Origin: Nitrospiria bacterium
GTDB lineage: Bacteria > Nitrospirota > UBA9217
Reading direction: 5' to 3'
Assembly (NCBI GenBank): GCA_919901555.1
Contig: CAKKPG010000012.1
Coordinates: forward strand, 10,654-74,653
Length of the DNA: 64,000 nt
Shown: one piece after another, positions 9,358 through 33,561 of the stretch
Layout: the number at the start of each line of letters is the position of its first letter
Position numbering within the stretch: position 1 is the first letter of the stretch
Notes under the pieces: model-generated
The model's input: the letters and a program-made list of their open reading frames with translations, nothing else
Databases searched by the model: none
Told to the model about the DNA's origin: nothing
Position numbers and translations under genes: made by a program

Positions 9358-12300
9358 TTATTCGGGTCCATATTCCATCCAATACCACTCCGCCTCCCGG
9401 AACTCAAGGATGCCGTCCAGCATCAGTCTGACGCCGGAGGCATCGGCGCTCGTAATCTGAAACAGGGAATTCACGGCCTTGAGGAGGTCATGGATGTTTT
9501 TTACGATGTCCTCTTCGGAGCTTGCCGTTCTGTCGCGGACTTTCCGCACATATTTTGCCGCATGGTCGAGCTTTTTCCTGTCCTTGCCGGCAGCTGAAAA
9601 AGCGTCAATGGCGGAGAGGAGATCAGCGGTCATTGCTGCGCTGTCTTTGCCTGCCGTGACGACCGCATCGAGATTCTGATACGGGACGTATGTCCCGTTC
9701 TCAACGTAACTCACCTCGGTCGAGAGCGTGTATGCTCCTTCTGCATCCGGCGTGAGGACGTAGGAGAGGATCGTCTTTGTCTCTCCTGGTTCGAGGTGGA
9801 TGTTTATGACCCACGGGTTGTCTGTTATCCATGCCTTTGTCGTCGAGTCGTAGGGCTTTACCCCTGCCGGATACGTCTCGGTCAGCCTGAGATCGGAGGC
9901 GGCGCCGAGGCTCTTGGCCTGTATCTCCACCGGAACGAGCTGATTCGGGTGGAAGGCGGTCGTATCCGGCGGCCTGTGGATGAATTCTAATGAATGTTTG
10001 ACTAAGGCTGTGAATCCGATGGTGTTTTCGCTGCCTGCCACGAGGTCGAAGGCGAAGTACAGGGCCTTGCCGTTGCCGTACTCACGCTTGATGATTGCCG
10101 GGTACTGCACCGGTTCTTTGTGCGTGGTCGCCGTAATCCATCCTATGGCGGTTTCCGGATCGGCTTCCTTGATCTTCATCACCCTGCCGAAAGACTGGAA
10201 GCTGCCCTGGATGCCGAGGTCGCTCTTAAGGATATCCACAGGATAGTTCCCTTCCGGAAGGCGGCCGTCCACCTTCATGCCGAAAAGTTCTCTCTCGATG
10301 TGCTCATGGCGGTAGCGTGAGAGGATGAGGCCCTTTCCTGCGTAGACCTGCTCCCTTAGTTCCTCGTCAAAGTGGTCTTCGAGATGATGCTGGTCGCCTA
10401 AGATCATGAAGTCCGTGTAGTATGGATTTCTCATCTCGGCCTGGAAGTCTTTTTTGTCGTAGACGATGCGGTAGTCTGTCACCGCCTCACGCAGAGCTTT
10501 CTCGAGTAGATCAACCCTCACACATTCTGCCTCGGGCAAATCCCCCCTCGCCCCCCTTTCATAAAGGGGGGTTGGGGGGATTTTCTTAGCATCTGCATCA
10601 TTCGCGTCCATTCGGGTCAATTCGCGGCTGAATTTGTTTTTCTCTGTGTCCTCTGCGTTCTCTGTGGCAAAGGGGTTTACATTTGCGTCGATTGGCGTCA
10701 ATTCGCGGCTGCCCTCTTCGCCTTCCATTTTTTGTTTTTCCCCATCTGCGTCACTCTGCGTTAATCTGCGGCCCACAGAGTCTTTTTCGCATTTCTCATT
10801 TATCCACACGAGGAGGTTCGTGACATCGGGTATTCTCTTCGTGACCTCGATCCCGGGCTTTACCTCAAAGGTCGCACTGGTTAGAGTCTTTGGCCGGGTC
10901 ATCTGGGCTGTCTGAACCTGGAGGACGGCGAGGTAGTTTTTCGGGGCAAGGCTTGAGGTCGTTATTGTTTGTGTGTTTGTGATGGTCTCTCCCCTTCTGA
11001 CTTCTGACTCCTGACTCCTGACTGCTGCCTTTGCTTCTCCGGTATCCGGATCGGCAATGACGAGTATTGCCGTGAGTCCGGCGATGTCTTCATTGCCGCT
11101 GTTCGTGACTGTGTAGGTGATCGTCTCATCCCTGCCCTGATACACGGGGTTCGGCGCTGCGGTGAGCGCGCCGGCAAGTCCCGCGCCGGTTGCGGTTGTG
11201 GACGAGAGTTCGAAGCTCGTAGTTGATGCAGAAAGGACGGCGCCGCCGGAGATGACTTCGAGCGTGACGGTGTAGGTTCCTTTCGGATTCGCGGCGGTGT
11301 TCCAGTAGCTCTTGAACGTGAACGAGGCCCCGGGCATGAGGGTGGTGAGGGTCTTGGTTTCCGTATATACCTGTATACCGCCTGCTGTATCCTGTCTGCT
11401 GATCGTGATTTTCGCCGTCAGGTTCTCGAAGATATAATTCCCGCTCTGGCTCGAGATCGTGGACGTGATGGCCGCTGTTTCATTCGGGTTGTAGCTGATC
11501 TTGTCCGTAACGACCTTTGCGCCGGCCCTTGTGTCGGGCAGTATCTCGAAGGAAGCGCGGTTTTCAGTCACCGGCCCCGCTCCTTGCGACAGGGTTGCAT
11601 GGACCTGATAAATCCCCGGCGCGGTTGTGCCCGTGTTCCAGGTGAACTGGAAGGTGCTCTCGGGAACACGCTCGGGACTGCCCGCAGCAAAACGAATTTC
11701 CGCCAATGCGGGTGAAGCACTTATGCCGAGGCCGGCACTCGCTATTTTTGCGATAGTGGTCTTTGGTCCGAATGTTCCATCACCGATTCCCGGGTAGAAT
11801 TCTAATGCCAGCTTGTCGTACGTGACTGCGATGATGTCCAGGTGGCCGTCGCTGTTGAAATCGCCCGCATCAAATGCAGCATGGCTGTGTGTGTTGAGTG
11901 AAGGGATGGCAACGGGGAGGTCAAACTGTCCCCCGCCCTTCCCTTTGTAAAAATTTGTTTCTCCGCTTGCTCCCGTATTGAAAATCAAATCAAGCTTTCC
12001 GTCCTCGTCGAAATCTCCAATTGCGCCGCCGTACGGATCCGTTCCGCTTGTTCCGATCTGTACCGGCGACACGAATGTGCCGTCCCCGTTACCCTGGTAA
12101 AGATAGAGTCCGCCGCCGCAGCAGGATGAGATGATCAAATCCAATTTACCATCACCAGTCACATCGGCAATCATTTTGCTTCTGAGAGCAACTGAGCCGG
12201 CCGGCGGTGTAAGGGTCGTTTTTGTGAACGTACCGTCCCCCTTGCCCTTGAACAGATACCAGGCGTTCAAGTTTACACTTGCGACGAAATCCTTGTTCCC

Positions 12301-15300
12301 GTCACCGTCGACATCTGCCGAAGTGATGTCCATCATATAGCTGTTCGGCGAAATATCACTTATTTTTACTTTTGCATTAAACGTATTCGTGCCGTCCGCC
12401 TTGTTCCGGAAATAGTATAATTCGCCTCGGTCACCCGACCCTGTGATGATATCGACAAACCCGTCATTATTGAAGTCGTCGAGAACGATGCCGCGGGTGA
12501 GATCGGTCCACGCGGACAGGTCTTCTATTTGCTTCACAGCGCCGAACGTCCCGTCACCCATATTTTCGACGGTAAATATCCTGCCGATCTCGTCACTAAA
12601 TGCAATAAGCTTTCCGGTCTTCGGCAGCCTCGTATTGACTGAAGGCGCTTTGGGTCCGTGGTCCACAGTATCGAAATAGATCGAGAAGTATCTCACTGAG
12701 CCCTTTGCGGCAACTCCGTCCATAAGCCAGGTGACCCTGGCGTCGGCATCCGACAGGAAGGCCGCCAGTGCCTGCTTTTCTCCTATGAGATCGCCTGCGG
12801 CGTCAAGTTCCATGACTCTGATGGAATTTTTATCAAGTACTTTGTCAGTGAGCCCCAGGTTCTGAAGGGCGGTAGTAAAAGCAATGGTTGTTTCTGCAAG
12901 CACGTCTTTCATGTCACGTGCTGCCGTTACTGTTGCGGGCATCCTGTACGACCATCCCTGATTTCCTGAGAATCTGAGATCGCTAACGGTAAATGTCGCC
13001 GCTGTCGCAACCCGGGCCCCTGACGCATCTTCGATGGAAATATCGCCCGTGCCCGACCATGCGGTTGCGTTATGGTTCTTCACTGTTACGGCAATATTCA
13101 CGTCTGATGATGCGCTATACGCCGTCTTGTCTGCCTCAAGTGTCGATGTTATCCCCGAGGTCTGAATGAACATTGTTTTTGCCGCCGCATTGTTGTCTTC
13201 GCGGGATTCAATGATGGCATTTCCGGGATCGACTGCCACGTATATCGTCTGCTGTCCCGCGAATCCGGTTGTTTTCAGCACACCCTGGACCGCTGCCCTC
13301 TCGCCCAGGGCCACTTGAGGATAGATGAACTGTTCCGTAATCAGAACACCACCGGATGCAGGGTCGCCAAAATAGAAATGCACGGGAATATTCCCGGTTG
13401 CCGCCCCCCGGTTTCGGATCGTTGCCGTGACCGTCACGGTATCGCCTTCTCGTGCCGACGCAGTTGAAAGCGCGATACTCTCATTCGTGATCTCAAGATC
13501 GGGCAGCCCGGGAGGACTCACCGTTATGGTAAAGGACGCGAGGTTGTTGTTCTCGTTCGATTCTGAGATGCTGTTGCCCGGATCAACGGAAACATAGAGC
13601 ACGTTGTCGCCCGACAGTCCGAGCGTGTCGAATGTAAATGCCACGGCTGCCGAACCGCCTGCGCCCACAGTCTGAATAACCTGATTGGTTCCAAGCTGCG
13701 TCCCGCCGGAAGCCGGGTTCCCGCAGTAAAGTCGAACACTCACATTGGAAGCTGCCGCTAAACCCTGATTCCTGACACCTGTCATTATCGGGACGAGGCT
13801 TCCCTCGGTGTACGGCGCAGGAGGAAGTGTGATGTCCGCAGCGGACGTCGTCAGATCCGGCAGCTCGCTTCCGAGGAAAGCGTCGAGGCTTGCCTGGTTG
13901 TCGTCTTCGTTGCATTCGGATACTGTGTTGTCTTTGTCCACCACTGCATAGAAATGGTGCGGCCCCGTGCTCAGGGCTTCGGTCCCGAAGGTGACGTCCT
14001 GGTACTCACCGGGCTGGAGGGCCCTCGTGGTGGGCGCGGCGCCGATGACGACGCCTGTTCCCGGCGCGCCATCATAGAACGTGACTGTTGCGCCTGCCGC
14101 CGCCTCTTTTGCCCCGCCGTTTCCGATCCTCACGGTCAAGGCGATGTAAGAGCCCACTTGTTCGGAACGGAGATGCGACGCCGTGAGGTTCGGGGCAAGG
14201 TATGGGTTGGGGCTCTCACCAACCCGCGCCTGGGTGCGGTAGGTGTTGTTCAGGAGCCAGGACGGGGATTCATACTGCGGTATGGTGCCGTCGTCATTGA
14301 CGTTCGTGACATGATAATTCGGCTGGTTCCAGATTTTGCGGGCGTTCACCCAATCGTCGTTCTTGGCTTTGTAGACCCGCAGGCTCTCGGCGCCATAGTC
14401 GTTCCCTGTCTGGGCCGCATATCCCGATACTACCGCGTCGGCATGGCCGTCGTTGTCTACGTCGGTGATTATGACGTTTTGGAAGCTGCCGCCCTCTCCG
14501 CCGAACTTTTCCTCGTACAGTAGTGTGCCGCTTTTGCCGTCGAATATGCGGAAATATTTCTGGCTGTTGATCAGCACCTCGGGCTTGCCGTCACCGTTCA
14601 GGTCGAATACAGTCGGCGCCGTTCTATCCTGCCATCCCCAGCCCCACCATTGATACGGCACATAATAGGACTGTTTTTTGTTGCCGTGCTTATCCAGAAT
14701 ATGGTAATAATTGACCCCGAGAATACCGATCTCCATCTCGCCGTCACCGTCGAAATCCGCGATAACGGGAGGACAGCCCAGATAACTTTGGGAAACGAGA
14801 GGCTCAAGGCTATTCAGACGCACCGGCCCCCATTTGACCGTGCCGTCATGCTCAAGGAGATACACGCTGCTGTTTGTGCCGTTTTCAGTTACAACGATTT
14901 CAGGATATGCGTCGTCGTCGAAATTGCCGATCGCGGTGGCTCCGCCGTCAAACGAGTTATTCCACCACCGAAGCGTTCCATCGGCATTCCAGACGGCATT
15001 GCCGGCAATGATCTCTGGTCTTCCATCGAGATCGATGTCGGCAACCGTGGACGCATAGGAACTCCAGTTAGTCGCGCCTGTCCCAACCCACGCCGGGTTC
15101 GAGATCGCGTTTGCCCACCGGATGCTTCCATCCGGGTTGATTACGGTCGATCCGGAAGTGATCTCCGGCATGCCGTCCGCATCGATGTCCGCGATAATCG
15201 GCGTCGCGTTCGAACGAATGGTTGGTTCCGGCGCATAGATGGAATGGGAATTGATCCAATCATTGACCTGTTGGCTATTGTCCCACTTTAATGTTCCGTC

Positions 15301-18276
15301 ATGCTCATAGACCAAAATACTGCATCGGGAACTGCTGGGGCAGTATTTAGGGATGACGATCTCCGGGAGACCGTCCTTGTCTATGTCGCCTGTGCTCACA
15401 TATGCATGCTGATCTAATCGGCGATTGCCATCATAGGTCGAAAATATGGTCGCTCCTGTATCGCCCCTGACCGCCCATAATTTTCCATCTCCGTAATAGA
15501 CAAGACTCGAAAATACGAGCGACGGCATGTCTTTATCATCTATCTTTCCATCACCATTGTCGTCCGTGAGGTTGGTTACGAGCACCTGTCGTGGGATCGG
15601 CTGTCCCCTCGTGCTCCACGTCCACTTCCTGACCGGCTCAATGGGATTTGCCGGCCGTTTCTCGCAATCGTCGCAGGAAATTAGGAGGTTGTTGGTTTCG
15701 CTCTGCTCAAGAATTGAGTCTGACGAGTCTATAAGTGCGTAGAGGGGCGAGTGCAGGAACTTGACGCTGCCTGAGAGGGTCACGTTGACCATGCCCGCGC
15801 CTTCGGGCCAGAGAGTGAGCGTGTTCGTGCCGGTCCCGAGCACGTTGTCCAGTCCGGGCGTATAGCTCCCGTCAAGGTCCGTGTCTTCGAACACGAGGAC
15901 GTCGAAGGAGCTGGTTATCTTGTCGTCGCCCTTGTTCTGGAACGTGACGGCGGCCGTGCCGGAAACTGACAGGGCCGAGGGGTCGGTAGTCAGGGCTGAA
16001 AGGTCGATCTTTGTGGGGACAAGGTCAGGCCCGAGGATTTCGCCCGGGGCCTTGATCTTGAGTGAGCGGATCGCCTGGTTGTTGTCTTCATAAAGTTCCG
16101 TTACGACGTTTTCGGTGTCCGCGATCGCGTAAAAACGGTACGTCCATGGCACAGCGGTAAAGGTGTAGGGGAGCGTTGTACTGCCGTCGCCGGCGATGTT
16201 GCTTATTGGGAATGTCTGGAGGAGAGCGCCGCCCTGTGCAGGATCGCCGTCGTAGAGGGCCAAGTTGAAGGCCCCGGTGTCCTTGATGCCGGTATTATGC
16301 GCCATGATGGACAGTACCACCGAATCGCCGTTCACGGGATGGGACGGAGTGAAGGTCAAGTCAGTGGCAGATATGGAAATGTCCACCATGTCGGCCATGA
16401 CGCGGGTGGAGGCACGGTTGTTGGTCTCGTTCGTCTCGATGATTGCGTTCGCCCTATCTAAGACAACATAGATGTCATGAATTCCGCTTGAAATCGTCCA
16501 ATTCGTCGTAATGGTTTCCTCTGCGCCCGCTGCGGTTGAAATAGTCGTCGTGTATATGAGATTTCCGCCAGATGGAGAAGGAGGCCCGTCATATATCTCC
16601 ACAGTAAAGCTATTTGCCGCTTCCAATCCCTCATTCCGGACAGATGCGGATATCTGAACGGTCTCAGTCGCATGGGGCCGTGATGGGGTGAGTGTTATGG
16701 TTCCAGCAACAAGATCAGCCTGCTGCTGCGCTCCGCCTGCCTGAATGGTGACTGTGCCGGTGTTGTTGGTCTCGGAGAGTTCGGTTATTGCGTTCCCGGA
16801 GTCGGCTACGAGGTACAGCATATGCGCCCCATCGCCGGTGAGCGTAACGCCGAAGGTCCCGGTGCGCACCTCGGTCCCATTGAGACCGGAGATGTGGACG
16901 GTCTGTAATAATGTGCCGCCTTGAGCGGGACTGCCATCATAGAGAGCGACGTCGAATCCGGCTGTGGATGATTCACCAATATTGCGGATAGTATAGCTGA
17001 GCGTAAAGGCCGTGCCGGATGCAGGTACATACGTCGAGGGCTTCAAATCCTCGGAGAAGACGGCAATATCAGGCGCTGTGGCGATCCAAATCCGAGTCGA
17101 GGCGATATTGTCCATCTCGTTGGTTTCTGAAATGATATTGTCAGGGTCTACTTTTACGAAGATCGTTTTTCCACCGGTGCCGGTGAAACTCTGCGTGATT
17201 GATACAGGTGCGGATGAGCTGATGGCAAGAGAGGTAATAATCTGATCAGAACCAATCTGAGTTCCACCAGCAGAAGGATCACCGAGATAGAAGCGGACGA
17301 TAATATTTGATGCGCTTTCGAAGCCGGTATTATGAACCGTCGCGGTAATAGTGACAGATTCATTTGCCTGGGGCATAGGCTTTGACAGCGAAATATCACC
17401 CGGGGAGATAGCAAGGTTCGCACGTGCGCTTGCGAGTGCGCGCAATGCGAGCGCAGTCGAATACGGGTCTTGATTCCACGAACCATCGGCGAGCTGAGTT
17501 GTGGTCAGATAATTTATCGCTCCAGGAACAGAGGCAGAAATATTCGCTCCGCTTGCGATAAGAGCATCGAGGGCGAGGGCGGATTCGTATACATTAGACG
17601 GACTTGAACCGAAACCTCCATCCGTGTTCTGCTTTGAGAGCAGATAGGCAACTCCCTTATCAATAGAACTTTGGACGTTGAAGGTGACGTTGTTGTATGA
17701 TGCCAACATCTGGAGCACAGTTGCAGTTATGTAAACATTGCTGACAATATTATCTTTGAATCCCCAGCCTCCATCTGCCCTTTGATTCGCAGTAATATAG
17801 TTTATCGCCTGGAATAGAACGCCATAGTCCGAATAATTTACGGAACGAAGAGCTTGCAGGGCGAGAGTGGTATCCAGAATGCCATCGTCAAAGCCCGCAT
17901 TTATTCCCCAACCGCCAACGGCAGGATCGCGATAATAGAGCAGCACTTCGACTTCAGCGGATGCATCCATACCTGCTCGTTTGAGCGCGGCAATCCGCCG
18001 TGAGAGATAATCCGTTGGCGAAACAGCCTGGCTGCTGAGCCACGTAAGACCCTCAGTATACGTCGAACTCGTTGGCTCAAAGACATAGACAGCATCCAGC
18101 GCAGCGGATGTGGAGTAGTACTCAGTCGTCTCTACAGCGGGCCAATTACCGGTAGTGGTCTGGGAGGAATTGAGCCAGACGAGGCCCGATGATATTTGTG
18201 GAGTTTGGGCGAAGACTGAAAAACTTATGGTCGATAACAGGATAAAAAAAACGAGGCCAAATGTACGCTTTCGCAT
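9358..18276 (-). CDS. Giant secreted multidomain protein: signal peptide, prenyltransferase/squalene-cyclase-like alpha/alpha-toroid repeat domain, CARDB modules, two FG-GAP/VCBS-like propeller-type blocks, and a unique roughly 700-aa C-terminal region
   Basis: 2972 aa. Signal peptide MRKRTFGLVFFILLSTISFSVFA. Residues about 30-300 carry repeated GGWG / DGGFG / DGSWN motifs. At least 8 CARDB-like modules follow (V.ItA.V.N.G...VD..N.I.E.NE.NN). Eight FG-GAP-like D.D.DG..E motifs occur (DIDKDGLPEIVI, DIDADGMPEI, DIDLDGRPEI, DFDGDGEMEI, DLNGDGKPEV, DVDNDGHADAVV). A second block of five follows (DFNNDGFVDI, DVDGDGNKDF, DVTGDGKLDL, DFDEDGKLDL, DFNSDGHLDI). Confidence 0.85.
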   Translation of the reverse strand: MRKRTFGLVFFILLSTISFSVFAQTPQISSGLVWLNSSQTTTGNWPAVETTEYYSTSAALDAVYVFEPTSSTYTEGLTWLSSQAVSPTDYLSRRIAALKRAGMDASAEVEVLLYYRDPAVGGWGINAGFDDGILDTTLALQALRSVNYSDYGVLFQAINYITANQRADGGWGFKDNIVSNVYITATVLQMLASYNNVTFNVQSSIDKGVAYLLSKQNTDGGFGSSPSNVYESALALDALIASGANISASVPGAINYLTTTQLADGSWNQDPYSTALALRALASARANLAISPGDISLSKPMPQANESVTITATVHNTGFESASNIIVRFYLGDPSAGGTQIGSDQIITSLAISSSAPVSITQSFTGTGGKTIFVKVDPDNIISETNEMDNIASTRIWIATAPDIAVFSEDLKPSTYVPASGTAFTLSYTIRNIGESSTAGFDVALYDGSPAQGGTLLQTVHISGLNGTEVRTGTFGVTLTGDGAHMLYLVADSGNAITELSETNNTGTVTIQAGGAQQQADLVAGTITLTPSRPHATETVQISASVRNEGLEAANSFTVEIYDGPPSPSGGNLIYTTTISTAAGAEETITTNWTISSGIHDIYVVLDRANAIIETNETNNRASTRVMADMVDISISATDLTFTPSHPVNGDSVVLSIMAHNTGIKDTGAFNLALYDGDPAQGGALLQTFPISNIAGDGSTTLPYTFTAVPWTYRFYAIADTENVVTELYEDNNQAIRSLKIKAPGEILGPDLVPTKIDLSALTTDPSALSVSGTAAVTFQNKGDDKITSSFDVLVFEDTDLDGSYTPGLDNVLGTGTNTLTLWPEGAGMVNVTLSGSVKFLHSPLYALIDSSDSILEQSETNNLLISCDDCEKRPANPIEPVRKWTWSTRGQPIPRQVLVTNLTDDNGDGKIDDKDMPSLVFSSLVYYGDGKLWAVRGDTGATIFSTYDGNRRLDQHAYVSTGDIDKDGLPEIVIPKYCPSSSRCSILVYEHDGTLKWDNSQQVNDWINSHSIYAPEPTIRSNATPIIADIDADGMPEITSGSTVINPDGSIRWANAISNPAWVGTGATNWSSYASTVADIDLDGRPEIIAGNAVWNADGTLRWWNNSFDGGATAIGNFDDDAYPEIVVTENGTNSSVYLLEHDGTVKWGPVRLNSLEPLVSQSYLGCPPVIADFDGDGEMEIGILGVNYYHILDKHGNKKQSYYVPYQWWGWGWQDRTAPTVFDLNGDGKPEVLINSQKYFRIFDGKSGTLLYEEKFGGEGGSFQNVIITDVDNDGHADAVVSGYAAQTGNDYGAESLRVYKAKNDDWVNARKIWNQPNYHVTNVNDDGTIPQYESPSWLLNNTYRTQARVGESPNPYLAPNLTASHLRSEQVGSYIALTVRIGNGGAKEAAAGATVTFYDGAPGTGVVIGAAPTTRALQPGEYQDVTFGTEALSTGPHHFYAVVDKDNTVSECNEDDNQASLDAFLGSELPDLTTSAADITLPPAPYTEGSLVPIMTGVRNQGLAAASNVSVRLYCGNPASGGTQLGTNQVIQTVGAGGSAAVAFTFDTLGLSGDNVLYVSVDPGNSISESNENNNLASFTITVSPPGLPDLEITNESIALSTASAREGDTVTVTATIRNRGAATGNIPVHFYFGDPASGGVLITEQFIYPQVALGERAAVQGVLKTTGFAGQQTIYVAVDPGNAIIESREDNNAAAKTMFIQTSGITSTLEADKTAYSASSDVNIAVTVKNHNATAWSGTGDISIEDASGARVATAATFTVSDLRFSGNQGWSYRMPATVTAARDMKDVLAETTIAFTTALQNLGLTDKVLDKNSIRVMELDAAGDLIGEKQALAAFLSDADARVTWLMDGVAAKGSVRYFSIYFDTVDHGPKAPSVNTRLPKTGKLIAFSDEIGRIFTVENMGDGTFGAVKQIEDLSAWTDLTRGIVLDDFNNDGFVDIITGSGDRGELYYFRNKADGTNTFNAKVKISDISPNSYMMDITSADVDGDGNKDFVASVNLNAWYLFKGKGDGTFTKTTLTPPAGSVALRSKMIADVTGDGKLDLIISSCCGGGLYLYQGNGDGTFVSPVQIGTSGTDPYGGAIGDFDEDGKLDLIFNTGASGETNFYKGKGGGQFDLPVAIPSLNTHSHAAFDAGDFNSDGHLDIIAVTYDKLALEFYPGIGDGTFGPKTTIAKIASAGLGISASPALAEIRFAAGSPERVPESTFQFTWNTGTTAPGIYQVHATLSQGAGPVTENRASFEILPDTRAGAKVVTDKISYNPNETAAITSTISSQSGNYIFENLTAKITISRQDTAGGIQVYTETKTLTTLMPGASFTFKSYWNTAANPKGTYTVTLEVISGGAVLSASTTSFELSSTTATGAGLAGALTAAPNPVYQGRDETITYTVTNSGNEDIAGLTAILVIADPDTGEAKAAVRSQESEVRRGETITNTQTITTSSLAPKNYLAVLQVQTAQMTRPKTLTSATFEVKPGIEVTKRIPDVTNLLVWINEKCEKDSVGRRLTQSDADGEKQKMEGEEGSRELTPIDANVNPFATENAEDTEKNKFSRELTRMDANDADAKKIPPTPLYERGARGDLPEAECVRVDLLEKALREAVTDYRIVYDKKDFQAEMRNPYYTDFMILGDQHHLEDHFDEELREQVYAGKGLILSRYRHEHIERELFGMKVDGRLPEGNYPVDILKSDLGIQGSFQSFGRVMKIKEADPETAIGWITATTHKEPVQYPAIIKREYGNGKALYFAFDLVAGSENTIGFTALVKHSLEFIHRPPDTTAFHPNQLVPVEIQAKSLGAASDLRLTETYPAGVKPYDSTTKAWITDNPWVINIHLEPGETKTILSYVLTPDAEGAYTLSTEVSYVENGTYVPYQNLDAVVTAGKDSAAMTADLLSAIDAFSAAGKDRKKLDHAAKYVRKVRDRTASSEEDIVKNIHDLLKAVNSLFQITSADASGVRLMLDGILEFREAEWYWMEYGPE

Positions 18277-18342: not shown

Positions 18343-18789
18343 CTACTCCCAATATTTTTTCTTAAAGTCACTCATAATATAAATTTCTTTCACCAGGAAT
18401 CCCATGAACACAAAGAATGATATAAGCCATACAGAATTAACAATAAAATTTGTTACGAGCAAAGCTGACAGAAATAAGGATTCTATTATGCAACTTTTCT
18501 TATTAAAAGTTTTAGCGAGCACACTTTTTATCTCTTCATAATTCTTCACTAACTGAATTACCACAATGAAGAAAAGCAGGGCTATCAAAATAATATCAAT
18601 ATAAAAAAATAACTTATTTCGCCAAAGTGCACTTCTGTAAATAATCAAAATAATTAAAACAAGAAAACCACTAAATAGTGCGTTAATAGCAAGCTTCAGA
18701 CGGTCTTTTGCAAATCTTCTAACTTTTAAATTGTGCATTATTAAATAAAGTGTTGTGTTTATAAATAACAACAGCGATTCATTATTCAT
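18343..18789 (-). CDS. Small AT-rich 4-TM membrane protein (cassette 1)
   Basis: Start MNNESLLLF at 18789 with a GGAGG SD. Very hydrophobic (I/L/F-rich). GC content is far below the flanking genes. It sits between the transglutaminase-like gene and the giant gene. Confidence 0.6.
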   Translation of the reverse strand: MNNESLLLFINTTLYLIMHNLKVRRFAKDRLKLAINALFSGFLVLIILIIYRSALWRNKLFFYIDIILIALLFFIVVIQLVKNYEEIKSVLAKTFNKKSCIIESLFLSALLVTNFIVNSVWLISFFVFMGFLVKEIYIMSDFKKKYWE

Positions 18790-18812
18790 AGTATCGACCT
18801 CCTTCACAAATT

Positions 18813-21800
18813 TTAATAAGCCAATCCATTGCCCAGGCAATTACTTTGAGTTGCGGAGCCAGCAAAATACATTCTTATCGAATTAATCAGTATTTGAACG
18901 GGTCGAAATGTAATAAAAACGATTAGAATATTTCGCACAGTGATTGCAGCCAAAATATTTAATGCTATAGCAGCAACACAGTCTTGTGCGGTACTACTTG
19001 CCTCAGTCATGAGCCAATTCAAGAAAGCCAGATAAATTGGCAAAAGCAACGATAGAATAGCAAATGCAATGGGTCCTGCCAATATTGATAAAGCTAACAG
19101 AAGTAGACCAACACCGATGAGAAGCAACGCGCCATTTTCACCCGAACTAATCATATACGCTCCTGCCCCTGTAACTGGATCAGTAATAATATAACCACAA
19201 AGTAGGCGGTCATTGTAGCTGACATTCGTTCTTGGAACAGTAACTTCTTTTCCTGCATTTACCGCGTTCGCAATAACGCTTTTCACATCTTCACTGACCT
19301 GCAATTGCGGAAGAATAATATTTATATTCGTTTGGTTGACAGTGTAGATGGAGATTCCTTGATCACTTGCTATTTGCAACGCTTTTACTGCTGAGATACC
19401 CTGCACCACATCGCTCGGCGTCGAATACATCCGTTCTGGGATCAGATGCTCCAAGGCTGATGACATACTGCCAGATGTGAGCATATATTTTCTGACATTA
19501 TCTGTGTTTCCGTTTTTACTGAATACGGCCTGCATGATTCTGTCCACATCCATCATCATACCCCCAAAACCAGTCCACGTCGGAATTCCGAATACGGCCT
19601 GAACAGCAAGCTGCGTCGAACACAGTCCGATAGAGGGAACTCGATACCGTATTGCATCTTGTGCTTTCGCGGCAATCTCATCACTTAAATCAAGCTCATT
19701 GAAATAGGTTGTAATTGTCATAAATAAGAGATCACCAACGACATCATCTTTCGTGATCCCGCCGTAAGTCTGAGTAACTATTTTTTCTTTCGTGGTTTCA
19801 AGCTTCGCTTTGAGAGCGTTAAGTCGATCCCCTCCAACTCGTCCTGTGTCCAGACCGATCCCGTAATATTCACCCGCCTGAATCATGTTATCGATATTGC
19901 TCAATCCTATTCCCGGCTCATTAAGCGACATGGTGAACGACTGCGCACTGCCCATCGTGCCAGGAGCGCCGGTTGCCACAATTTGTCCGTCTATACGTAG
20001 TTCAGACTTGAGATTGATAAGATACGCCGGGAATGATGACGGCAGTTCACTTGGCTGGATGGGTGTGCCATCTGGATGAGGCTGAGGTAAAAATGATTCT
20101 ATAACAGCTTGATCGTTGGCAGTTGCTGGTGAGAATGACAATGTGATCTTTTTGCCCGCAAGCTCCGGGAGGCTAGCACTATAGAAAAGCCCTGTACCTG
20201 CGCCTGTGGAATCGGGAATACTGAAGCTTATGGTCGCGCGCAGGTTGTCAGGAACTTGAGCAAACTGAGAGCCGATCTGCACGGTCTTGTACGGAAGTGT
20301 TTCGGGTAATATGCCGAACTCCTGCTTGATAATCTCCTTCTTGCCGACCACATCCCCTACTGTCGCATTGGGATGGTTCTGCTGAATGTAGTTCTGCACC
20401 TGCGTCTGGTAGTCCTGCATAGTCTGCTGGATCAGGGTGGAGTTCACGTTCGTTACATACCCTTCTGTTTCATTGATCGTCGAAGTCGATTGAAGCTGAT
20501 TGGCAAAGGTTTGTGCGTCAAAGGGCACGGCTGACTGGATGTCAATTCCCTGCGTATAGGCATACTGCTTGAATGAAGGATCAAGCTGGATCCAGGTATC
20601 GGGCTGTCGATGAACGGCCCCGCGGCTCGGGATATAATCGATGAACGCGCTGACCCATACGTGTTCCATCCTCACGTATTTATAGACGCTGCCGCTGGTT
20701 TTGAGAAGCGTAACGGGAACGCCGTTGGTGGCAAGAATCGTTCCGACCATCATCGGATTGGTCACATCGCCGACCCAGTTCATTGCTTTTTCGATGGGGA
20801 TATCGACGGTGCCGTAGGCGTAGCGTGCGGAGATGCCGGACGTGCGAAGCAAAGCGATGAGCAAACTGGCAGTGTCGGTGTCGTTGCAAATCCTTGACTG
20901 AAGGCACTGGTCCGCCCCTTGGATGCTGCCATAGGTGGGTGCATATTCGATATTATTGCGGACCCATTCGTAGATTCTGAGCGGTGAGTTGCCGAGTTCG
21001 GCGGCTTTGGCGCGGATTTCGGGCGTGAATTGGACTTCGGGAGTTTCGGATAGGTCAGCGGCGGTCGGAATATCCGCTGTCTGCTGCGCGAGAAGGATCG
21101 GTGCTGAATCGGCGAAGGCTACCTGCAGAATCGCCCCCTCCCCCCCTCCCTCTCCCACAAGGGGGCGAGGGAGTTGAAGCGGAACATCACTCGCAATTTC
21201 GTTGAATGCGAGGAGAACGGGTTTCGATTGCGGCTTGCTCGCCAGGAGATCAGGCATCAACCGGCTGTCGGAGATATTACGACTGCTGTGTGACTTTTGC
21301 TTTCGAAAATCGCGCTCGAACTCTTCCTTTTTCAAGCGCGGTGCGACCGTTTTGGTCGCTTTCCGGACGCGAAACGGCAGATTCTCCGGATCGAGCCGTT
21401 GCACGAGCTTTTTCGGCCGGGTCTTGTCTAGGTGCAAACGTACTTTCTCTATCTTCGCCTTTCGCTCCGCCGGGGTCCTGGCCGCGTCTATGTCGTTTAA
21501 CTCATCCCGGAGTTGCGTGTAGTTGGCGGTATAGTTTTTAACGAACGCCGTATGCCTATCGCGTATTTCGCGGGGCAAGCCAGCGATCTTCTTCTCCGTG
21601 GCGGCGAATTCCGCCTGGAGCTGCTCATTCAAATCAGCGAGTTGGGTTTTCCTGTTCCCGACCTCCCGGATTTCCGCGGAAGCATCCTCGCCCTTTGCAT
21701 TCTTCTCGCTTGCCTTGCCGACCTTCTCGCGTATTGCCTCAAGAACACCTTCAAATTTTTCTTCGGGCTTTTGCTCTCTGCTTACTGGCTTTCCGGGCGC

Positions 21801-21935
21801 CTGTTCCACGGACGCTGCTTTCTGTTTCTCTGCGGCAAATGCAGCGGGTATCTGGAATAAAGGGCCAAATGACCATAGAAAACAGGTGAGAACAGTCCAT
21901 ACCGTGACTCGGAAGCTGAAAGAATAGGCGCGCAT
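18813..21935 (-). CDS. Membrane-anchored transglutaminase-like (papain-fold Cys-His-Asp) domain protein, cassette 1
   Basis: 1040 aa. N-terminal signal/anchor, K/E-rich coiled coil, then the core: LRIYEWVRNNIEY...GADQCLQSRICNDTDTASLLIALLRTSGISARYAYG (Cys), HVWVSAFIDY (His) and WIQLDPS (Asp). The C-terminus has several TM helices. GGAGAG SD before the ATG. Confidence 0.8.
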   Translation of the reverse strand: MRAYSFSFRVTVWTVLTCFLWSFGPLFQIPAAFAAEKQKAASVEQAPGKPVSREQKPEEKFEGVLEAIREKVGKASEKNAKGEDASAEIREVGNRKTQLADLNEQLQAEFAATEKKIAGLPREIRDRHTAFVKNYTANYTQLRDELNDIDAARTPAERKAKIEKVRLHLDKTRPKKLVQRLDPENLPFRVRKATKTVAPRLKKEEFERDFRKQKSHSSRNISDSRLMPDLLASKPQSKPVLLAFNEIASDVPLQLPRPLVGEGGGEGAILQVAFADSAPILLAQQTADIPTAADLSETPEVQFTPEIRAKAAELGNSPLRIYEWVRNNIEYAPTYGSIQGADQCLQSRICNDTDTASLLIALLRTSGISARYAYGTVDIPIEKAMNWVGDVTNPMMVGTILATNGVPVTLLKTSGSVYKYVRMEHVWVSAFIDYIPSRGAVHRQPDTWIQLDPSFKQYAYTQGIDIQSAVPFDAQTFANQLQSTSTINETEGYVTNVNSTLIQQTMQDYQTQVQNYIQQNHPNATVGDVVGKKEIIKQEFGILPETLPYKTVQIGSQFAQVPDNLRATISFSIPDSTGAGTGLFYSASLPELAGKKITLSFSPATANDQAVIESFLPQPHPDGTPIQPSELPSSFPAYLINLKSELRIDGQIVATGAPGTMGSAQSFTMSLNEPGIGLSNIDNMIQAGEYYGIGLDTGRVGGDRLNALKAKLETTKEKIVTQTYGGITKDDVVGDLLFMTITTYFNELDLSDEIAAKAQDAIRYRVPSIGLCSTQLAVQAVFGIPTWTGFGGMMMDVDRIMQAVFSKNGNTDNVRKYMLTSGSMSSALEHLIPERMYSTPSDVVQGISAVKALQIASDQGISIYTVNQTNINIILPQLQVSEDVKSVIANAVNAGKEVTVPRTNVSYNDRLLCGYIITDPVTGAGAYMISSGENGALLLIGVGLLLLALSILAGPIAFAILSLLLPIYLAFLNWLMTEASSTAQDCVAAIALNILAAITVRNILIVFITFRPVQILINSIRMYFAGSATQSNCLGNGLAY

Positions 21936-22697: not shown

Positions 22698-23573
22698 CTA
22701 TGTCTCCCCTCGCTCGCGGAACAGCCGCGACGCTCTTGCCCGCAGCGTGCATACGGGGCAGCCTCCTCTTCTGTATCTATCGATGATTCTTTCTCGATAT
22801 TCATGCCCTTTCCGGCATTTCCACCATACGAGGCGCGTGGAAAATGGGGAGACGTCCTTCGGCGTCCAGGTCCCGTTCTTCGCAGAATGCCACTCGCGGG
22901 ACAGCCACGGCGCTTTGGCCTCAAGGCAGTTCTCCTCGGCCGGCCTTCGCCCTGAACAGTAAGGGCATCCGTCTCCTTCGCTTCTGTTCTCTACAACAGA
23001 TTGCCATTCATGACCTTTTCGGCATATCCACCAGACTTTTTTGTTGGATTTAGGGAGAACATCCTTCGGCGTCAAAGGAGCATTCTTCGTATGATGCCAC
23101 TCGCGGGCAAGCTTTGGATCTACGGCCTGAAGGCAGGTATCAGCGGTTGCTTGTCGTCCTGAGCAACAAGGGCACCCGTAACCGGAGGTCCTTCTATATA
23201 AGGGGGCCGGCCACTCATGCCCTTTCTTGCACACCCACCAGACTTTCCTGCCGGAGCCGGCAGTGACATCTTTCGTCGTCAGAGGAGCATTTTTCGTCGG
23301 ATGCCACTCCCTGGCCAGCTTCGGATTTACGGTTTTTAGACAATTGTCTTTATTCACTCTTCGTCCAGAGCAATATGGGCAGCCTTCGTCTCGGCCTCTG
23401 TCCGAGATGCGAGCATCCCACTCATGACCTTTATCGCAGAGCCACCAGACTTTGATATGCGCGCCAGGGGTCACATCCTTCGGCGTAAGCGGTGCGTTCT
23501 TCGTGGGGTGCCACTGGCGTGCGAGCGCCCTGTTCACTTTAGCGAGTGTAGGTTTCACGTTCTGTTTTATCAT
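22698..23573 (-). CDS. Protein of four tandem treble-clef zinc-ribbon repeats (DUF4379-like)
   Basis: 291 aa. Four repeats of about 63 aa: LAREWHPTKNAPLTPKDV...KVWW.C.KGHEW.......GCPYCSGRR. Its ATG overlaps the stop of the upstream 527-aa ORF (ATGA). Confidence 0.7.
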   Translation of the reverse strand: MIKQNVKPTLAKVNRALARQWHPTKNAPLTPKDVTPGAHIKVWWLCDKGHEWDARISDRGRDEGCPYCSGRRVNKDNCLKTVNPKLAREWHPTKNAPLTTKDVTAGSGRKVWWVCKKGHEWPAPLYRRTSGYGCPCCSGRQATADTCLQAVDPKLAREWHHTKNAPLTPKDVLPKSNKKVWWICRKGHEWQSVVENRSEGDGCPYCSGRRPAEENCLEAKAPWLSREWHSAKNGTWTPKDVSPFSTRLVWWKCRKGHEYRERIIDRYRRGGCPVCTLRARASRLFRERGET

Positions 23574-25096
23574 GCAATGTTACTGGCTTTGGTGAGTTCG
23601 GTTATCTGATTGCCTGAATCTGCAACCAGATAAAGAGTATGCGCACCGTCTCCCCTGAGGGTCACGCCGATTGTCCCGGTGCGGACCTCCGTGCCCGTAA
23701 GGCCGGAAATATTTCCGGTCTGGAGGAGCGTCCCGCCAGAGGCGGGGTCCCCGTCGTAGAGAGATATGGTAAATGCCCCTGTCTCGGACTCGCCCAGGTT
23801 TCTGACCTTGTATTCCAGAGTGAAGGCAGTTCCGGCACTCGGAACATAGGTCGAAGGCTTGAGGTCTTCGGAGTAAACGGCAATATCAGGTTCGGTTGCT
23901 ACCCAGATGCGGGATGAGGATTTGTTGTCACTCTCTGATGTTTCGGAGATGGTATTGTCCGGGTCTGCGACAACGAAGATCGTCTTGCCGCCGGTGCCGG
24001 TAAAGGATTGAGAGATGGATGCTTGAGACGATGAATTGACGGATAAAGAAGGAAGGATTTGATCGACACCAATTTGCATGCCGCCGGCAGAGGGATCTCC
24101 AAGATAAAACCGAACAACAATATCCGATGCACTGTCATAGCCTGAATTGCGAACGTTTGCGGTGAGCGTTATCGTCTCCCCTTCTCGCGGCATGGGATTG
24201 GTGAACGATACCGATGCTACTGAAAGGTTTGGTCGTACACTCGCCAGCGCACGAAGAGCCAAAGCGGTCGAGTAAGGATCATCATTCCAACTGCCATTAG
24301 CTGATTGACTTGTAGTCAGATAATTTACCGTTGCAGGAACGACCGCTGAAACATTCGATCCGCTTGCTATCAGGGCATCAAGCGCCAGAGCTGATTCGTA
24401 AACTTTTGACGGCGAACTTCCAAAACCACCATCGGCATTCTGCTTTGAAAGCAGATAAGCGACAGCCTTGTCTATTGAGCTTTGGACATTGAAGGTAACA
24501 TTATTGTATGACGCTAACATTTGAAGTATAGTAGCAGTCAAGTAAACATTGCTGACCGCGTCATCCTTGAATCCCCAGCCGCCATCATTTTTTTGATTCG
24601 AAGTAAGATAATTTATCGCTTGGAAGAGAACGCCAAAGTCGGAATAATTTGCTGAACGAAGAGCTTGCAAGGCAAGGGTGGTATCTAAAATGCCGTCGTC
24701 AAAACCCTTATGTGTCCCCCAGCCGCCAACAACAAGATCGCGATAATAGAGCAGCACTTCGACTTCAGCGGATGCATCCATACCTGCTCGTTTGAGCGCG
24801 GCAATCCGCCGTGAGAGATAATCCGTTGGCGAAACAGCCTGGCTGCTGAGCCACGTAAGACCCTCAGTATACGTCGAACTCGTTGGCTCAAAGACATAGA
24901 CAGCATCCAGCGCAGCGGATGTGGAGTAGTACTCAGTCGTCTCTACAGCGGGCCAATTACCGGTAGTGGTCTGGGCGGAATTGAGCCACCTGAGGCCTGT
25001 CGGAATTTGCGGTATTTGAGCGGATGCAAAAGAGGTAAATAAAAACATTAAGAATGAACCAATCAGAAAGCTCAAGCGACTTGCTCTTTTGAACAT
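23570..25096 (-). CDS. Truncated paralog of the giant protein (signal peptide, alpha/alpha-toroid domain and about 2.5 CARDB modules); possibly a decayed copy
   Basis: Start MFKRASRLSFLIG at 25096 with a GGAGGAGG SD. About 80 aa of the mature N-terminus are identical to the giant protein. It ends inside a CARDB module (LYLVADSGNQITELTKASNIA-stop) where the giant protein continues. Confidence 0.6.
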   Translation of the reverse strand: MFKRASRLSFLIGSFLMFLFTSFASAQIPQIPTGLRWLNSAQTTTGNWPAVETTEYYSTSAALDAVYVFEPTSSTYTEGLTWLSSQAVSPTDYLSRRIAALKRAGMDASAEVEVLLYYRDLVVGGWGTHKGFDDGILDTTLALQALRSANYSDFGVLFQAINYLTSNQKNDGGWGFKDDAVSNVYLTATILQMLASYNNVTFNVQSSIDKAVAYLLSKQNADGGFGSSPSKVYESALALDALIASGSNVSAVVPATVNYLTTSQSANGSWNDDPYSTALALRALASVRPNLSVASVSFTNPMPREGETITLTANVRNSGYDSASDIVVRFYLGDPSAGGMQIGVDQILPSLSVNSSSQASISQSFTGTGGKTIFVVADPDNTISETSESDNKSSSRIWVATEPDIAVYSEDLKPSTYVPSAGTAFTLEYKVRNLGESETGAFTISLYDGDPASGGTLLQTGNISGLTGTEVRTGTIGVTLRGDGAHTLYLVADSGNQITELTKASNIA

Positions 25097-25160
25097 AGCT
25101 CCTCCTCCGACACCGATGATCCCAGCATGCATGATAACCACAGGCGCAAGCATAGAAAAA

Positions 25161-25484
25161 TTATCGTTTATAAAAAATAAACAAAAAAAGTAAAATCAGA
25201 ACAAAAAATATTATTGAGTATAAAATAACCTCTGCAGGTTTATAGCCCTGTTGTAACTTCAGAATAAGGGGATGCCGTTTTTCTTTAAGCAGAGCGAGAA
25301 GAATAGCGGCCAATGCGATAACGGATAATATAACAATTGCAAAAGGATCGTTCCGAGATTCAAAAATTCCTAAGCCAACAAAGAAAAGTGAAAAAAAGAA
25401 AATAATTATATTTTTGTTTGCTCGCAAGTAGCGAAAAAACAGGTACAAAGCAATCGATAGATTCAGAAATGCTATTTTATTCAT
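25161..25484 (-). CDS. Small AT-rich multi-TM membrane protein (cassette 2, third)
   Basis: 107 aa, hydrophobic. Overlaps the upstream ORF by 8 nt (translational coupling). Confidence 0.5.
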   Translation of the reverse strand: MNKIAFLNLSIALYLFFRYLRANKNIIIFFFSLFFVGLGIFESRNDPFAIVILSVIALAAILLALLKEKRHPLILKLQQGYKPAEVILYSIIFFVLILLFLFIFYKR

Positions 25485-25884
25485 TTTTCTGATCCCCCAT
25501 TATCTTATTGTCTAATCGTTCGTTTATAGTTTTCAAAAAAGACTCAAGTATCAATACAGCAGCACAAACTATCCAGACTTCGAATAAAACAAAAGGGAAA
25601 ATACTTTTAGGGAAATTTTTTAATAAGTCGTCTGGTAATAACCAGAGAGAGAGCATTGCAATGCTTACTATGATACAAGAATAAATTAATTCTTTCTTTA
25701 TTTGTCGGATTTTAGTGAGTGCTGTGCTGTTGCTAGCGATTATTGACTTAAAATCTTTTGTCTTATACATGAGTGAAGACGATAGACTATTAATCAACTT
25801 TTGCCTTTGATATTTACTAACCCTGACGGCAAAAATTGAAAAAAGGATTACTATTACTCCACTAAGCAATACGAATATCTTCAT
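25477..25884 (-). CDS. Small AT-rich multi-TM membrane protein (cassette 2, second)
   Basis: 135 aa with 3-4 TM segments. AT-rich. Confidence 0.5.
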   Translation of the reverse strand: MKIFVLLSGVIVILFSIFAVRVSKYQRQKLINSLSSSLMYKTKDFKSIIASNSTALTKIRQIKKELIYSCIIVSIAMLSLWLLPDDLLKNFPKSIFPFVLFEVWIVCAAVLILESFLKTINERLDNKIMGDQKNE

Positions 25885-25926
25885 TATATTATTTCACCAG
25901 CCAAGCGCCTACAGTTTTTGCGCCGT

Positions 25927-26349
25927 TTAATAGCTTTTCCGTGTTGCAAACCTGAAGTGTTGCTTGAAGCTAAAGTCTTCTACTCTTAATAATCTGTAGA
26001 AATAAATTATCGACGCCAATATGCTGAATGCCCCTGCGATAATAATTAAGAAAGCAAATACATTATCGATATCACGAAGTGAGATAAAGAGATTCCCGTC
26101 AAAAGTCGCAAATATTTTTGCAACTATAAAGTGCGCTAAGCTATTAAGCTCCATAAATATAAATGCAAATAACCAAAAACGATGCTTAATTAAAACGGCA
26201 AAAAAGAAAAAAATTAAAAGCGAAAATAAATAATCGCTCATATCATATTTTTTTAGTGGTACAACACTAAAAATTAATAGGAAGTTCCAAACGAATGCAT
26301 AGAAATTAACCAAAATTAAAACCTTTAAAATAACTCTCTCTTTCATCAT
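25927..26349 (-). CDS. Small AT-rich multi-TM membrane protein (cassette 2, first)
   Basis: 140 aa, 4 TM. Lies immediately downstream of the transglutaminase-like gene. Confidence 0.5.
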   Translation of the reverse strand: MMKERVILKVLILVNFYAFVWNFLLIFSVVPLKKYDMSDYLFSLLIFFFFAVLIKHRFWLFAFIFMELNSLAHFIVAKIFATFDGNLFISLRDIDNVFAFLIIIAGAFSILASIIYFYRLLRVEDFSFKQHFRFATRKSY

Positions 26350-26379
26350 AAACCTCCTTTTCTATTGCCTTTCCACTTC

Positions 26380-29300: not shown

Positions 29301-29478
29301 TTTCTTCGGTCGATTTTCGTCTTTCCTGTCCGCTGGTCGCCGCCTTTTGCCCTTTCGTCCCCCTGGACCCCGCCGCGGCATAAGAGGCTGGAATTTGGAA
29401 TAAAGGCCCGAAACACCATAAATACAGCATGAGGGTGATACTGGCCGTGATTTTCAAATTCATAGAATAAGTCCGCAT
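26380..29478 (-). CDS. Membrane-anchored transglutaminase-like domain protein, cassette 2
   Basis: 1032 aa, a paralog of 18813..21935 with the same coiled coil, TGase core (ICNDTDTASLLIALLRVSG / HVYVRAWIDY / WVPLDPS) and C-terminal TM region. Confidence 0.8.
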   Translation of the reverse strand: MRTYSMNLKITASITLMLYLWCFGPLFQIPASYAAAGSRGTKGQKAATSGQERRKSTEEKFRESLNRIGEAGEDREKLKAEKSELETLDTELQRQFKETETKIKNLPEVIKQRQRAFVKRYGEGLSALRTHLDGVEKAKTGDEARIAAGKVRVFLEKTKGPSRHQKLDPNNLPFKARKVTKTREPRLKREDFERDFPQQKTQNKRKVAEIRLMPDLLSSRRQYKPVLLAFNETASDVPFQIPRPSGERAGVRGGLNPKSEILNLQSQLAFSDSSSFLLAQAGDAPTAEDLAENGIEIQFTDDIKAKAQELSYSPLRIYEWVRNNIEYAPTYGSIQGADQCLQSRICNDTDTASLLIALLRVSGVYSHYEYSTIEIPIEKAMNLVGGVTDPKMAGTILATNGIPVTLMKTSGGTYKAVQLEHVYVRAWIDYIPSRGAVHKQGDTWVPLDPSYKQYTYTQGIDIKTAVPFDAQALADQIKATATINETEGYVTNVNSALVQQTMQDYQTQVQNYINQNYPNATVGDVLGKKEIIKQEFGILPETLPYKTILVGLQFAQIPDSLRATISFSIPDPTGMSAGLSYSTSLPQIAGKKITLSFSPATANDKTIIETYLQATPGSLPAYLINLKPELRIEGLVVATGSSVTMGSAQSFTMSLTEPGFGVSRIDNIIQAGEYFGIGLNTGKIAEKVLRNIKDKLAETKNLLVTKDYTTLTKDALVGDLLYFTAINYFADLDTVDEITAKVKNVIRYRTSSVGMFYLHMNVEEIFGIPKTVSSKGMMMDVDRIMQAVFSKDGDMNKLREYMLASGGVSSAFESRTPEQIFSTPSNSVEGLSAVKALQIASEQGIPIYSINQENASIINSQLQVAADVKKHIQDALNAGKIIAVPKRNININGWDGCGYIIIDPNTGAGAYMISGGTSGGFLLAPFVNIALHFLVTEAAAAELEETYISQAGGNCIKYFHSSEYWGCVGLVVSGSLEKLFKGFLGIAMVMQFFGGWFGYAAAILIGAGMVAWAVNQGAKCRELATHCDPPVQ

Positions 29479-32969: not shown

Positions 32970-33043
32970 AGCTCCTCCGGATATCTCAATGAATATCTTC
33001 AATGCAGAGAGACAAAACATACTACCTCAAACGTCACTCGATT

Positions 33044-33544: not shown

Positions 33545-33561
33545 CTTTCCGCTCCTTAGTT

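Follow-up and report, generated by a model that had tools for sequence, protein, structure and literature searches.

A giant gene of a Nitrospiria bacterium (Nitrospirota, UBA9217) was analysed within a window of 64,000 nucleotides, corresponding to positions 10,654 to 74,653 of contig CAKKPG010000012.1 (assembly GCA_919901555.1). All coordinates below are window positions; the gene lies on the minus strand, and amino acid (aa) numbers are residues of its 2,972-aa product. This product, referred to here as the giant, is a member of a large uncharacterised family and not a singular oddity. Its gene stands in most related loci beside a gene for a transglutaminase (TG)-domain protein which, with the small open reading frames (ORFs) next to it, has on sequence grounds the layout of a polymorphic toxin, and three such cassettes occur in the window. 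The giant is proposed to serve at the surface as a scaffold to which the TG-headed toxin docks, with propellers and immunoglobulin (Ig)-like arrays that touch target cells, a reading to which we assign a probability of about 0.5 overall and a lower one for docking itself.

Conserved pairing with transglutaminase-domain genes

Upstream sequence of 5 kb or more was available for 48 related loci; in 41 of them a TG homolog lies upstream of the giant gene and on the same strand, at a median gap of 1.7 kb. The pairing spans Nitrospirota, Geobacteraceae and Desulfuromonadaceae, including the cultured Geothermobacter and Geotalea. It outlasts changes in gene order and great divergence, since three distant giants of 4,884, 6,344 and 7,044 aa have a Transglut_core gene next or next but one downstream; two of these loci have RHS repeats in the encoded protein, and one has an LHH domain. 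No gene is conserved downstream of the giant among the related loci. The OmpA-like gene present in the window was not found in them, and genes for XRE-type helix-turn-helix, DUF4379, NHL and AraC proteins appeared in only one or two.

The TG protein as a probable polymorphic toxin

The TG gene combines a conserved body with a hypervariable C-terminus and is directly followed by a variable cognate gene. Over 44 TG proteins, column identity is 0.4-0.8 up to aa ~950-960 and 0.17-0.18 beyond that point, and the C-terminal tips fall into at least 23 clusters. Similarity between tips predicts similarity between the next ORFs (17/29/5/810 pairs, odds ratio 95, p 2e-19, not corrected for phylogeny). 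The tips of relatives carry NlpC/P60 (six), CHAP (two), phospholipase A2, C92, C25 and Peptidase_M23 domains; the intervening ORFs, of GC content 0.26-0.43, encode membrane or secreted products, and orphan C-terminal fragments of TG genes lie between genes. Sec-exported polymorphic toxins with N-terminal, often inactive TGase domains were described by Zhang et al. (2012; PMC3482391), who proposed that these domains hold the toxin at the surface by binding peptides. A giant partner is not mentioned in that work, and no published description of the giant family or of its pairing with TG proteins was found in the literature.

The three tandem cassettes of the window, all on the minus strand, each consist of a Transglut_core protein of ~1,040-1,083 aa, one to three small ORFs with multiple transmembrane (TM) segments and a GC content of 0.30-0.36, and then a toroid-CARDB gene (Table 1). 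The full-length giant closes the last cassette, and the other two close with shorter copies. The 5' part of the giant gene has been co-duplicated with each TG cassette: the 935-aa paralog is 67% identical to the giant over its first 820 residues, and the 527-aa paralog 76% over its first 505. An initial annotation of the window had stated that the C-terminal part of the giant is absent from the shorter paralogs, and the two copies indeed end at ~820 and ~505. A search of PDB sequences gave no match for the TG protein of the first cassette (TG1), and NCBIfam holds no family for the TG proteins or the small ORFs.

The N-terminal toroid

The ORF is intact at exactly 9358..18276, and its N-terminus reads as a Sec signal, the initial annotation having called the protein secreted; equivalent N-termini occur in all aligned relatives. 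That annotation had also read a series of QW-type motifs as an alpha/alpha toroid at the head of a cell-surface-type protein. The motifs are present as claimed (GGWG at 121, DGGWG at 168, DGGFG at 219 and DGSWN at 264, spaced by ~48 aa), and domain hidden Markov models (HMMs) and fold comparison agree with a cyclase-like (alpha/alpha) toroid, so the structural interpretation is supported. On the whole protein, the Pfam models SQHop_cyclase_C and TED_complement reached 47.2 and 26.0 bits (cut-offs 26.1 and 22), with Prenyltrans at 24.7 bits, under its cut-off of 26.5; on residues 1-300 alone the three scored 56.2, 34.9 and 31.6 bits. Against known folds, the toroid scored 25.7 with oxidosqualene cyclase (OSC), 24.6 with squalene-hopene cyclase (SHC), ~21-23 with toroids of the glycoside hydrolase (GH) family 76 type, 21 with intrinsic factor and 18-19 with the thioester domains (TEDs) of CD109, TEP1 and C5. 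SHC-type chains were also retrieved from the PDB by sequence, at E values of 1e-11 to 5e-13. The domain thus shows the (alpha/alpha)6 fold with QW repeats as well as a TED-type toroid.

The motifs D.DD, DD..D and C.EQ were found in none of the 34 aligned toroids of the family (the giant and 33 relatives), and the position equivalent to DxDD reads G-I-L-D in the giant. Residues 1-300 contain no cysteine, hence neither the Asp/Cys/His site for Zn2+ of prenyltransferases nor a CxEQ thioester, and the NCBIfam cyclase cut-offs were far from reached (TIGR01787, 63 against 322.7 bits; TIGR01507, 45 against 431). Because motifs and cysteine are missing and these scores are low, the toroid is, as far as sequence can tell, a cyclase-fold module lacking cyclase, prenyltransferase-Zn or thioester chemistry, and such a module would fit a binding role. 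The readings as a cyclase, a prenyltransferase or a thioester protein were ruled out by the missing catalytic residues.

CARDB and FG-GAP modules

The CARDB series noted at the outset gave 322 bits in eight stretches with Pfam on the whole protein. Copies mapped with a self-trained HMM lie at 303-392, 419-507, 535-622, 648-735 and 772-865 (the last divergent) in the first array and at 1373-1462, 1490-1580 and 1609-1698 in the second, with a CARDB-like copy at 2379-2456; the mapping counted eight canonical copies and two more divergent ones. FG-GAP_3 scored 174 bits in nine stretches and FG-GAP 72.9 bits over the whole protein. The 13 Ca-type motifs of the initial annotation were recovered exactly as [DN]x[DN]x[DN]G (one at 798, eight at 905-1325 and four at 1934-2139), against 0.52 +/- 0.72 (maximum 4) in composition-preserving shuffles. 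The FG-GAP blocks are putatively two Ca2+-binding propellers, predicted to act as adhesion or ligand-binding modules.

The C-terminal tail

The last ~700 residues had been described as devoid of obvious motifs. A motif-less C-terminus exists, and the span without a Pfam match is shorter, at ~490 aa (2481-2972). Residues 2481-2972 matched nothing in Pfam or NCBIfam, and a PDB sequence search returned nothing significant (best E 0.63); in the preceding Ig-like pair, MG2 scored 22.1 bits in the giant against a cut-off of 32.8. The first tail domain has the GATase1 alpha/beta fold, and the nucleophile elbow of an amidotransferase would fall at G-K-G-L-I-L-S. The tail alignment contains no invariant or near-invariant cysteine, only the loop-flanking Cys2496 and Cys2585 being present, so, judged by sequence, no amidotransferase nucleophile is conserved; a catalytic amidotransferase, with its Cys-His-Glu triad, was consequently rejected as a probable reading of the domain.

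Between these two cysteines lies an in-frame low-complexity insert that resembles a repeat element. Within it, a 30-nt sequence is directly repeated (10600-10629 and 10681-10710, 81 nt apart), and a palindrome rich in G and C occupies 10539-10569. The length of this loop ranges from 0 to ~90 aa across homologues, and a similar charged insert is present in one of them (P0001). No further close copies of the repeats or of the palindrome occur in the window. A mobile-element origin was considered and rejected, the repeats being single-site in the window and the loop naturally hypervariable in homologues.

Family size and relatives

A scan for the toroid family, restricted to one genome per species, yielded 265 confirmed matches, and 78 loci were fetched; the toroid query retrieved 138 protein clusters, from Nitrospirota, Thermodesulfovibrionales and Geobacteraceae, under record names that include "CARDB domain-containing protein". 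The nearest relatives of the giant are metagenome-assembled genomes of Nitrospirota. Complete orthologues measure 2,100-3,600 aa, and most have a single FG-GAP block of either type, both blocks being found in the giant and in one Nitrospirota locus (L024). The tail at first appeared rare, a word-indexed protein search having given 16 matches, an impression that was overturned by a full HMM scan of 1.84 billion representatives with 1,941 matches at E<=1e-3, of which 641 reached E<=1e-30. These matches nearly always sit at the very C-terminal end of proteins of 2,000-7,000 aa. Among the matches listed, 77 tail carriers have at least 1,800 aa; 53 of them carry a toroid near the N-terminus and 69 carry CARDB, and toroid head and GATase1-like tail are therefore seen as a recurrent frame around a variable middle. 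In the orthologues, the Ig pair is followed by tails of at least three unrelated classes, namely fibronectin type III (FN3)/Ig-like repeats of ~650 aa (18 loci), the GATase1-like tail (9 loci, including the window) and a third class (7 loci).

In GCA_015492515.1 (L001, 3-7484), a homologous giant gene is apparently split by a transposase gene of the Transposase_mut family. On a 166-kb ENA contig (L002, 7104-14717), a fragmented giant homolog is directly followed by a secretin gene and prepilin-type (N_methyl) genes, which may be a hint about outer-membrane export.

Proposed function and alternative explanations

The giant would be a Sec-exported, probably non-enzymatic surface or extracellular scaffold, displaying in order a ligand-binding toroid head, CARDB stalks, two Ca2+-binding FG-GAP propellers, the Ig-like pair and a tail made of the ThuA/GATase1-like domain, a beta-sandwich and a four-helix bundle. 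It would act as the conserved partner of a polymorphic-toxin cassette in which the last ~100-270 residues of the TG protein are a putative swappable effector, with matching small immunity-type genes downstream. The effector encoded here would be a TM-rich, presumably membrane-disrupting tip, and in relatives a predicted peptidoglycan hydrolase, phospholipase or RHS-LHH domain. The TG-headed toxin may dock on the giant as on a cell-surface platform, while the propellers and Ig arrays would touch neighbouring cells for contact-dependent competition. A wider claim, that toroid/GATase1-framed giants are dedicated extracellular carriers in an unrecognised contact-dependent antagonism system, must be regarded as tentative and rather doubtful. 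Toxins would there dock by a mostly dead TGase domain and be delivered to the envelope of neighbours by a route distinct from type V secretion/contact-dependent inhibition, the type VI (T6SS) and type VII (T7SS) secretion systems and extracellular contractile injection systems (eCIS), widespread in Nitrospirota, Geobacterales and related anaerobes.

Several points weigh against the scaffold proposal. The upstream TG gene is absent in 7 of the 48 loci with enough flank, and no TG gene adjoins L084, a giant that has the tail but lacks the toroid. The co-variation of tips and next ORFs is inflated by shared ancestry, and the three TG tips of the window, TM-rich and without a match to a Pfam toxin family, might simply anchor the protein in the membrane. 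Orthologues bear at least three tail classes, so the pairing does not depend on the GATase1-like tail. Apart from Sec, no signal for secretion is recognisable in the giant, nor is an outer-membrane anchor, although a 2,972-aa protein would have to cross the outer membrane of a diderm.

The giant might instead be a stand-alone adhesin or biofilm-matrix protein, with TG adjacency arising from co-regulation or from hitch-hiking in a variable island. CARDB, FG-GAP and Ig-like modules are all generic adhesion or stalk domains, and low-GC patches, an insertion sequence (IS) element and toxin-antitoxin-like genes lie nearby. Such an origin is nevertheless unlikely in view of adjacency in 41/48 loci over several lineages, its persistence in reversed order in three distant members that have only head and tail in common, the duplication of the 5' part of the giant gene along with each TG cassette and the lack of any other conserved neighbour. 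Alternatively, the giant could be a substrate of the neighbouring TGase-like enzyme, either cross-linked to the envelope or matrix by Gln-Lys isopeptide bonds or released by cleavage. LapG, a transglutaminase-like cysteine protease, cleaves the giant adhesin LapA and offers a precedent; the adjacency is conserved, and TG1-TG3 all keep Cys350, His425 and Asp452. However, 26 of 44 TG members have Gly in place of the putative nucleophile Cys while keeping the synteny, so catalysis cannot be what has conserved the pairing; the N-terminal signal of the giant is of the Sec type, in place of an architecture of the type I secretion system (T1SS), and hypervariable effector tips and immunity-like genes would be left unexplained. 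A substrate role is thus judged quite improbable.

Enzymatic or trap-like functions of the giant itself appear more remote. An alpha-2-macroglobulin (A2M)-like protease trap or envelope shield, suggested by the TED-like toroid and the Ig domains resembling macroglobulin (MG) domains, is largely refuted by the missing thioester and has little credibility. Hardly any remains for an active terpenoid cyclase or prenyltransferase displayed extracellularly: similarity in sequence and fold extends to SHC, MstE-type cyclases and prenyltransferase beta subunits, but DxDD/DDxxD occurs in 0/34 relatives, cysteine for a prenyltransferase Zn site is lacking, NCBIfam cyclase scores are far under their cut-offs (63 against 323 bits), and the toroid consists of just one domain of ~270 aa that follows a signal peptide.

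Features of the window

Table 1. Features of the giant gene and of the three cassettes, in window coordinates; residues are those of the giant
Feature	Residues	Position	Strand	Basis or remark
Giant exported multidomain protein, whole ORF	2,972 aa	9358..18276	-	ATG-to-stop, uninterrupted
Sec-type signal peptide	1-23	18208..18276	-	read from sequence: MRKR, hydrophobic core, cleavage VFA/QTPQ
(alpha/alpha)6 toroid, class-II-terpene-cyclase-like, without catalytic motifs	24-290	17407..18207	-	
CARDB Ig-like domains 1-5, fifth divergent with one DxDxDG	295-865	15682..17394	-	Pfam and self-trained HMM
FG-GAP block 1, eight DxDxDG-type Ca loops, putative beta-propeller	~880-1350	14227..15639	-	FG-GAP_3, FG-GAP and RGL11_C matches
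CARDB domains 6-8	1373-1698	13183..14160	-	Pfam and self-trained HMM
Region before block 2	1706-1889	12610..13161	-	always before FG-GAP block 2 in orthologues (tblastn co-occurrence)
FG-GAP block 2, six FG-GAP_3 stretches, four DxDxDG	~1890-2240	11557..12609	-	
Ig-like pair, kept in most orthologues	2245-2480	10837..11544	-	weak MG2/WxLIP and CARDB-like matches
ThuA/class-I-glutamine-amidotransferase-like alpha/beta domain	2481-2770	9967..10836	-	no conserved candidate nucleophile Cys
In-frame low-complexity insert, 85 aa, hypervariable loop between Cys2496 and Cys2585	~2498-2583	10528..10785	-	AlphaFold2 (AF2): disordered
Beta-sandwich	~2780-2875	9652..9939	-	AF2 secondary structure, confidence (pLDDT) about 90
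C-terminal four-helix bundle	~2879-2969	9370..9642	-	AF2
Small four-TM ORF between TGase gene and giant gene, immunity-like		18343..18840	-	GC 0.30
TG1, 1,040-aa exported transglutaminase-domain protein, variable TM-rich C-terminal tip		18813..21935	-	conserved upstream partner; TG1 aa ~50-200 coiled coil, ~300-455 TGase domain, 455-935 body
Cassette 2, whole		23570..29478	-	
Cassette 2: 527-aa paralog, toroid and two CARDB		23570-25153	-	
Cassette 2: three small low-GC membrane ORFs		25161-26349	-	
Cassette 2: TG2		26380-29478	-	
Cassette 3, whole		30213..36813	-	
Cassette 3: 935-aa toroid-CARDB paralog		30213-33020	-	
Cassette 3: small membrane ORF		33044-33571	-	
Cassette 3: TG3		33562-36813	-	

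Homologues of the 527-aa paralog (508 aa if counted from an internal Met) occur in metagenomes (P0017, P0018, P0019 and P0025); they measure 505-508 aa, are 48-81% identical to the N-terminal domain of the giant and all end at the same point just past CARDB-2. Two of them, P0018 and P0025, have near-identical C-terminal ~90 aa and different toroids. The short toroid form may be a maintained product and not simple decay, and it looks like a recombination mosaic. Upstream of cassette 3, an 87-nt remnant (37503-37589) matches the CARDB-1 region of the paralogs at 78% identity; translated by hand from the minus strand it reads SFTGTGGKTIFVVVDPDNQISETSERDNK, and it is probably what remains of a fourth toroid-CARDB gene.

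A 291-aa protein with four DUF4379 treble-clef zinc-finger repeats is encoded at 22698-23573 (minus strand), with a 4-nt overlap with the stop of the 527-aa paralog; close homologues (55-69% identical) occur near the same system in two Nitrospirota loci (L024 and L049). Divergent from TG1 and TG2 lie small genes at 22277-22630 and 29831-30163 (both plus strand) whose products look, by sequence, like XRE-type helix-turn-helix regulators, with homologues in only two related loci (L003 and L063). Islands of low GC (0.41-0.44, against ~0.55-0.60 in the flanks) at 18001-20000, 24001-28000 and 32001-34000 overlap the 3' ends of the TG genes and the small membrane ORFs, as would fit imported tip/immunity cassettes. 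In the TG body, the least conserved part (aa ~255-285) contains G-rich in-frame segments that resemble translated repeat elements, PLVGEGGGEGA in TG1 (21100-21200) and PSGERAGVRGG in TG2 (28650-28760).

Upstream of TG3 (36832-37436, minus strand) are two adjacent small ORFs that we take to resemble a DUF433/PIN-like (DUF5615) toxin-antitoxin pair, and ~6 kb past the cassette array there is an IS66-family transposase gene (43106-44413, minus strand). A scan for promoters and terminators in the window remained at chance level, except for a sigma-70-like site matching at 11/12 positions at 9054-9132 (minus strand), between the stop of the giant and the OmpA-like/coiled-coil gene (8345-9052). This site suggests that the OmpA-like gene, which it precedes, is a separate transcription unit.

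Significance

The individual domains are all known, and databases label the family generically, for instance as "prenyltransferase/squalene oxidase repeat-containing" or "CARDB domain-containing". What appears to be undescribed is the frame of toroid head and GATase1-like tail in hundreds of proteins of 2,000-7,000 aa, the near-obligate pairing of the giants with TG-headed polymorphic toxins, and the arrays of tandem cassettes in which the 5' end of the giant gene is duplicated as well. The coupling to polymorphic-toxin cassettes is the part most worth following up. If the giants are docking and delivery platforms, this would explain how Sec-exported TGase-headed toxins are held at the surface and targeted, a question open since 2012, and a system of interbacterial competition would be identified in environmentally important anaerobes. 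The carriers Geothermobacter hydrogeniphilus HR-1, Geotalea toluenoxydans JCM 15764 and Citrifermentans bremense R1 are in culture, which makes the platform idea testable. The toroid would also show clearly how a terpene-cyclase fold can be put to non-catalytic use in an extracellular protein.

Comparison with known systems

The toroid of the giant is 18-24% identical to monodomain class II terpene cyclases (PDB 8paj; MstE, 6sbb) and to SHC/OSC toroids; in contrast to these enzymes it lacks DxDD, is Sec-exported and continues into ~2,700 aa of other modules, Ig-like and propeller domains among them. Like the TEDs of A2M, complement and CD109, it belongs to a secreted protein of great size with many Ig-like (MG-type) domains, but it has no CxEQ and stands at the N-terminus, without a preceding MG series and bait region. 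Nearest to the tail domain are ThuA-like and other non-catalytic GATase1-like domains (PDB 1t0b, 2gk3 and 3rht) and the middle domain of GH42 beta-galactosidases, from which it differs by its position near the C-terminus of exported giants, by the beta-sandwich and four-helix bundle that follow and by its loop of 0-90 aa.

In the LapA/LapG system, too, a giant repetitive surface protein is encoded beside a protein of transglutaminase fold. The giant studied here is exported by Sec and not by a T1SS, and its partner, of more than 1,000 aa, ends in a polymorphic tip and is in most members devoid of the catalytic Cys; no genes for a T1SS, for a LapD-like regulator or for a small bacterial transglutaminase-like cysteine protease (BTLCP) were seen in the window. 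The VARTIG modules of Thermococcales likewise place a large Ig/CARDB protein in a hypervariable, polymorphic-toxin-like module (PMC8416519). These are archaeal, the large Ig-domain protein is there itself hypervariable, and transglutaminase, squalene-cyclase-type and glutamine-amidotransferase domains are not mentioned in that paper.

From the toxins of Zhang et al. (2012; PMC3482391) the TG proteins differ in having no RHS repeats and no match to the PT-TG Pfam model. Common to both are a TGase domain accompanied by a signal or TM segment, a body that is conserved next to an effector that is hypervariable, and a cognate gene downstream; the distant giants adjoin bona fide TGase-RHS proteins, with an LHH toxin domain in one of these.

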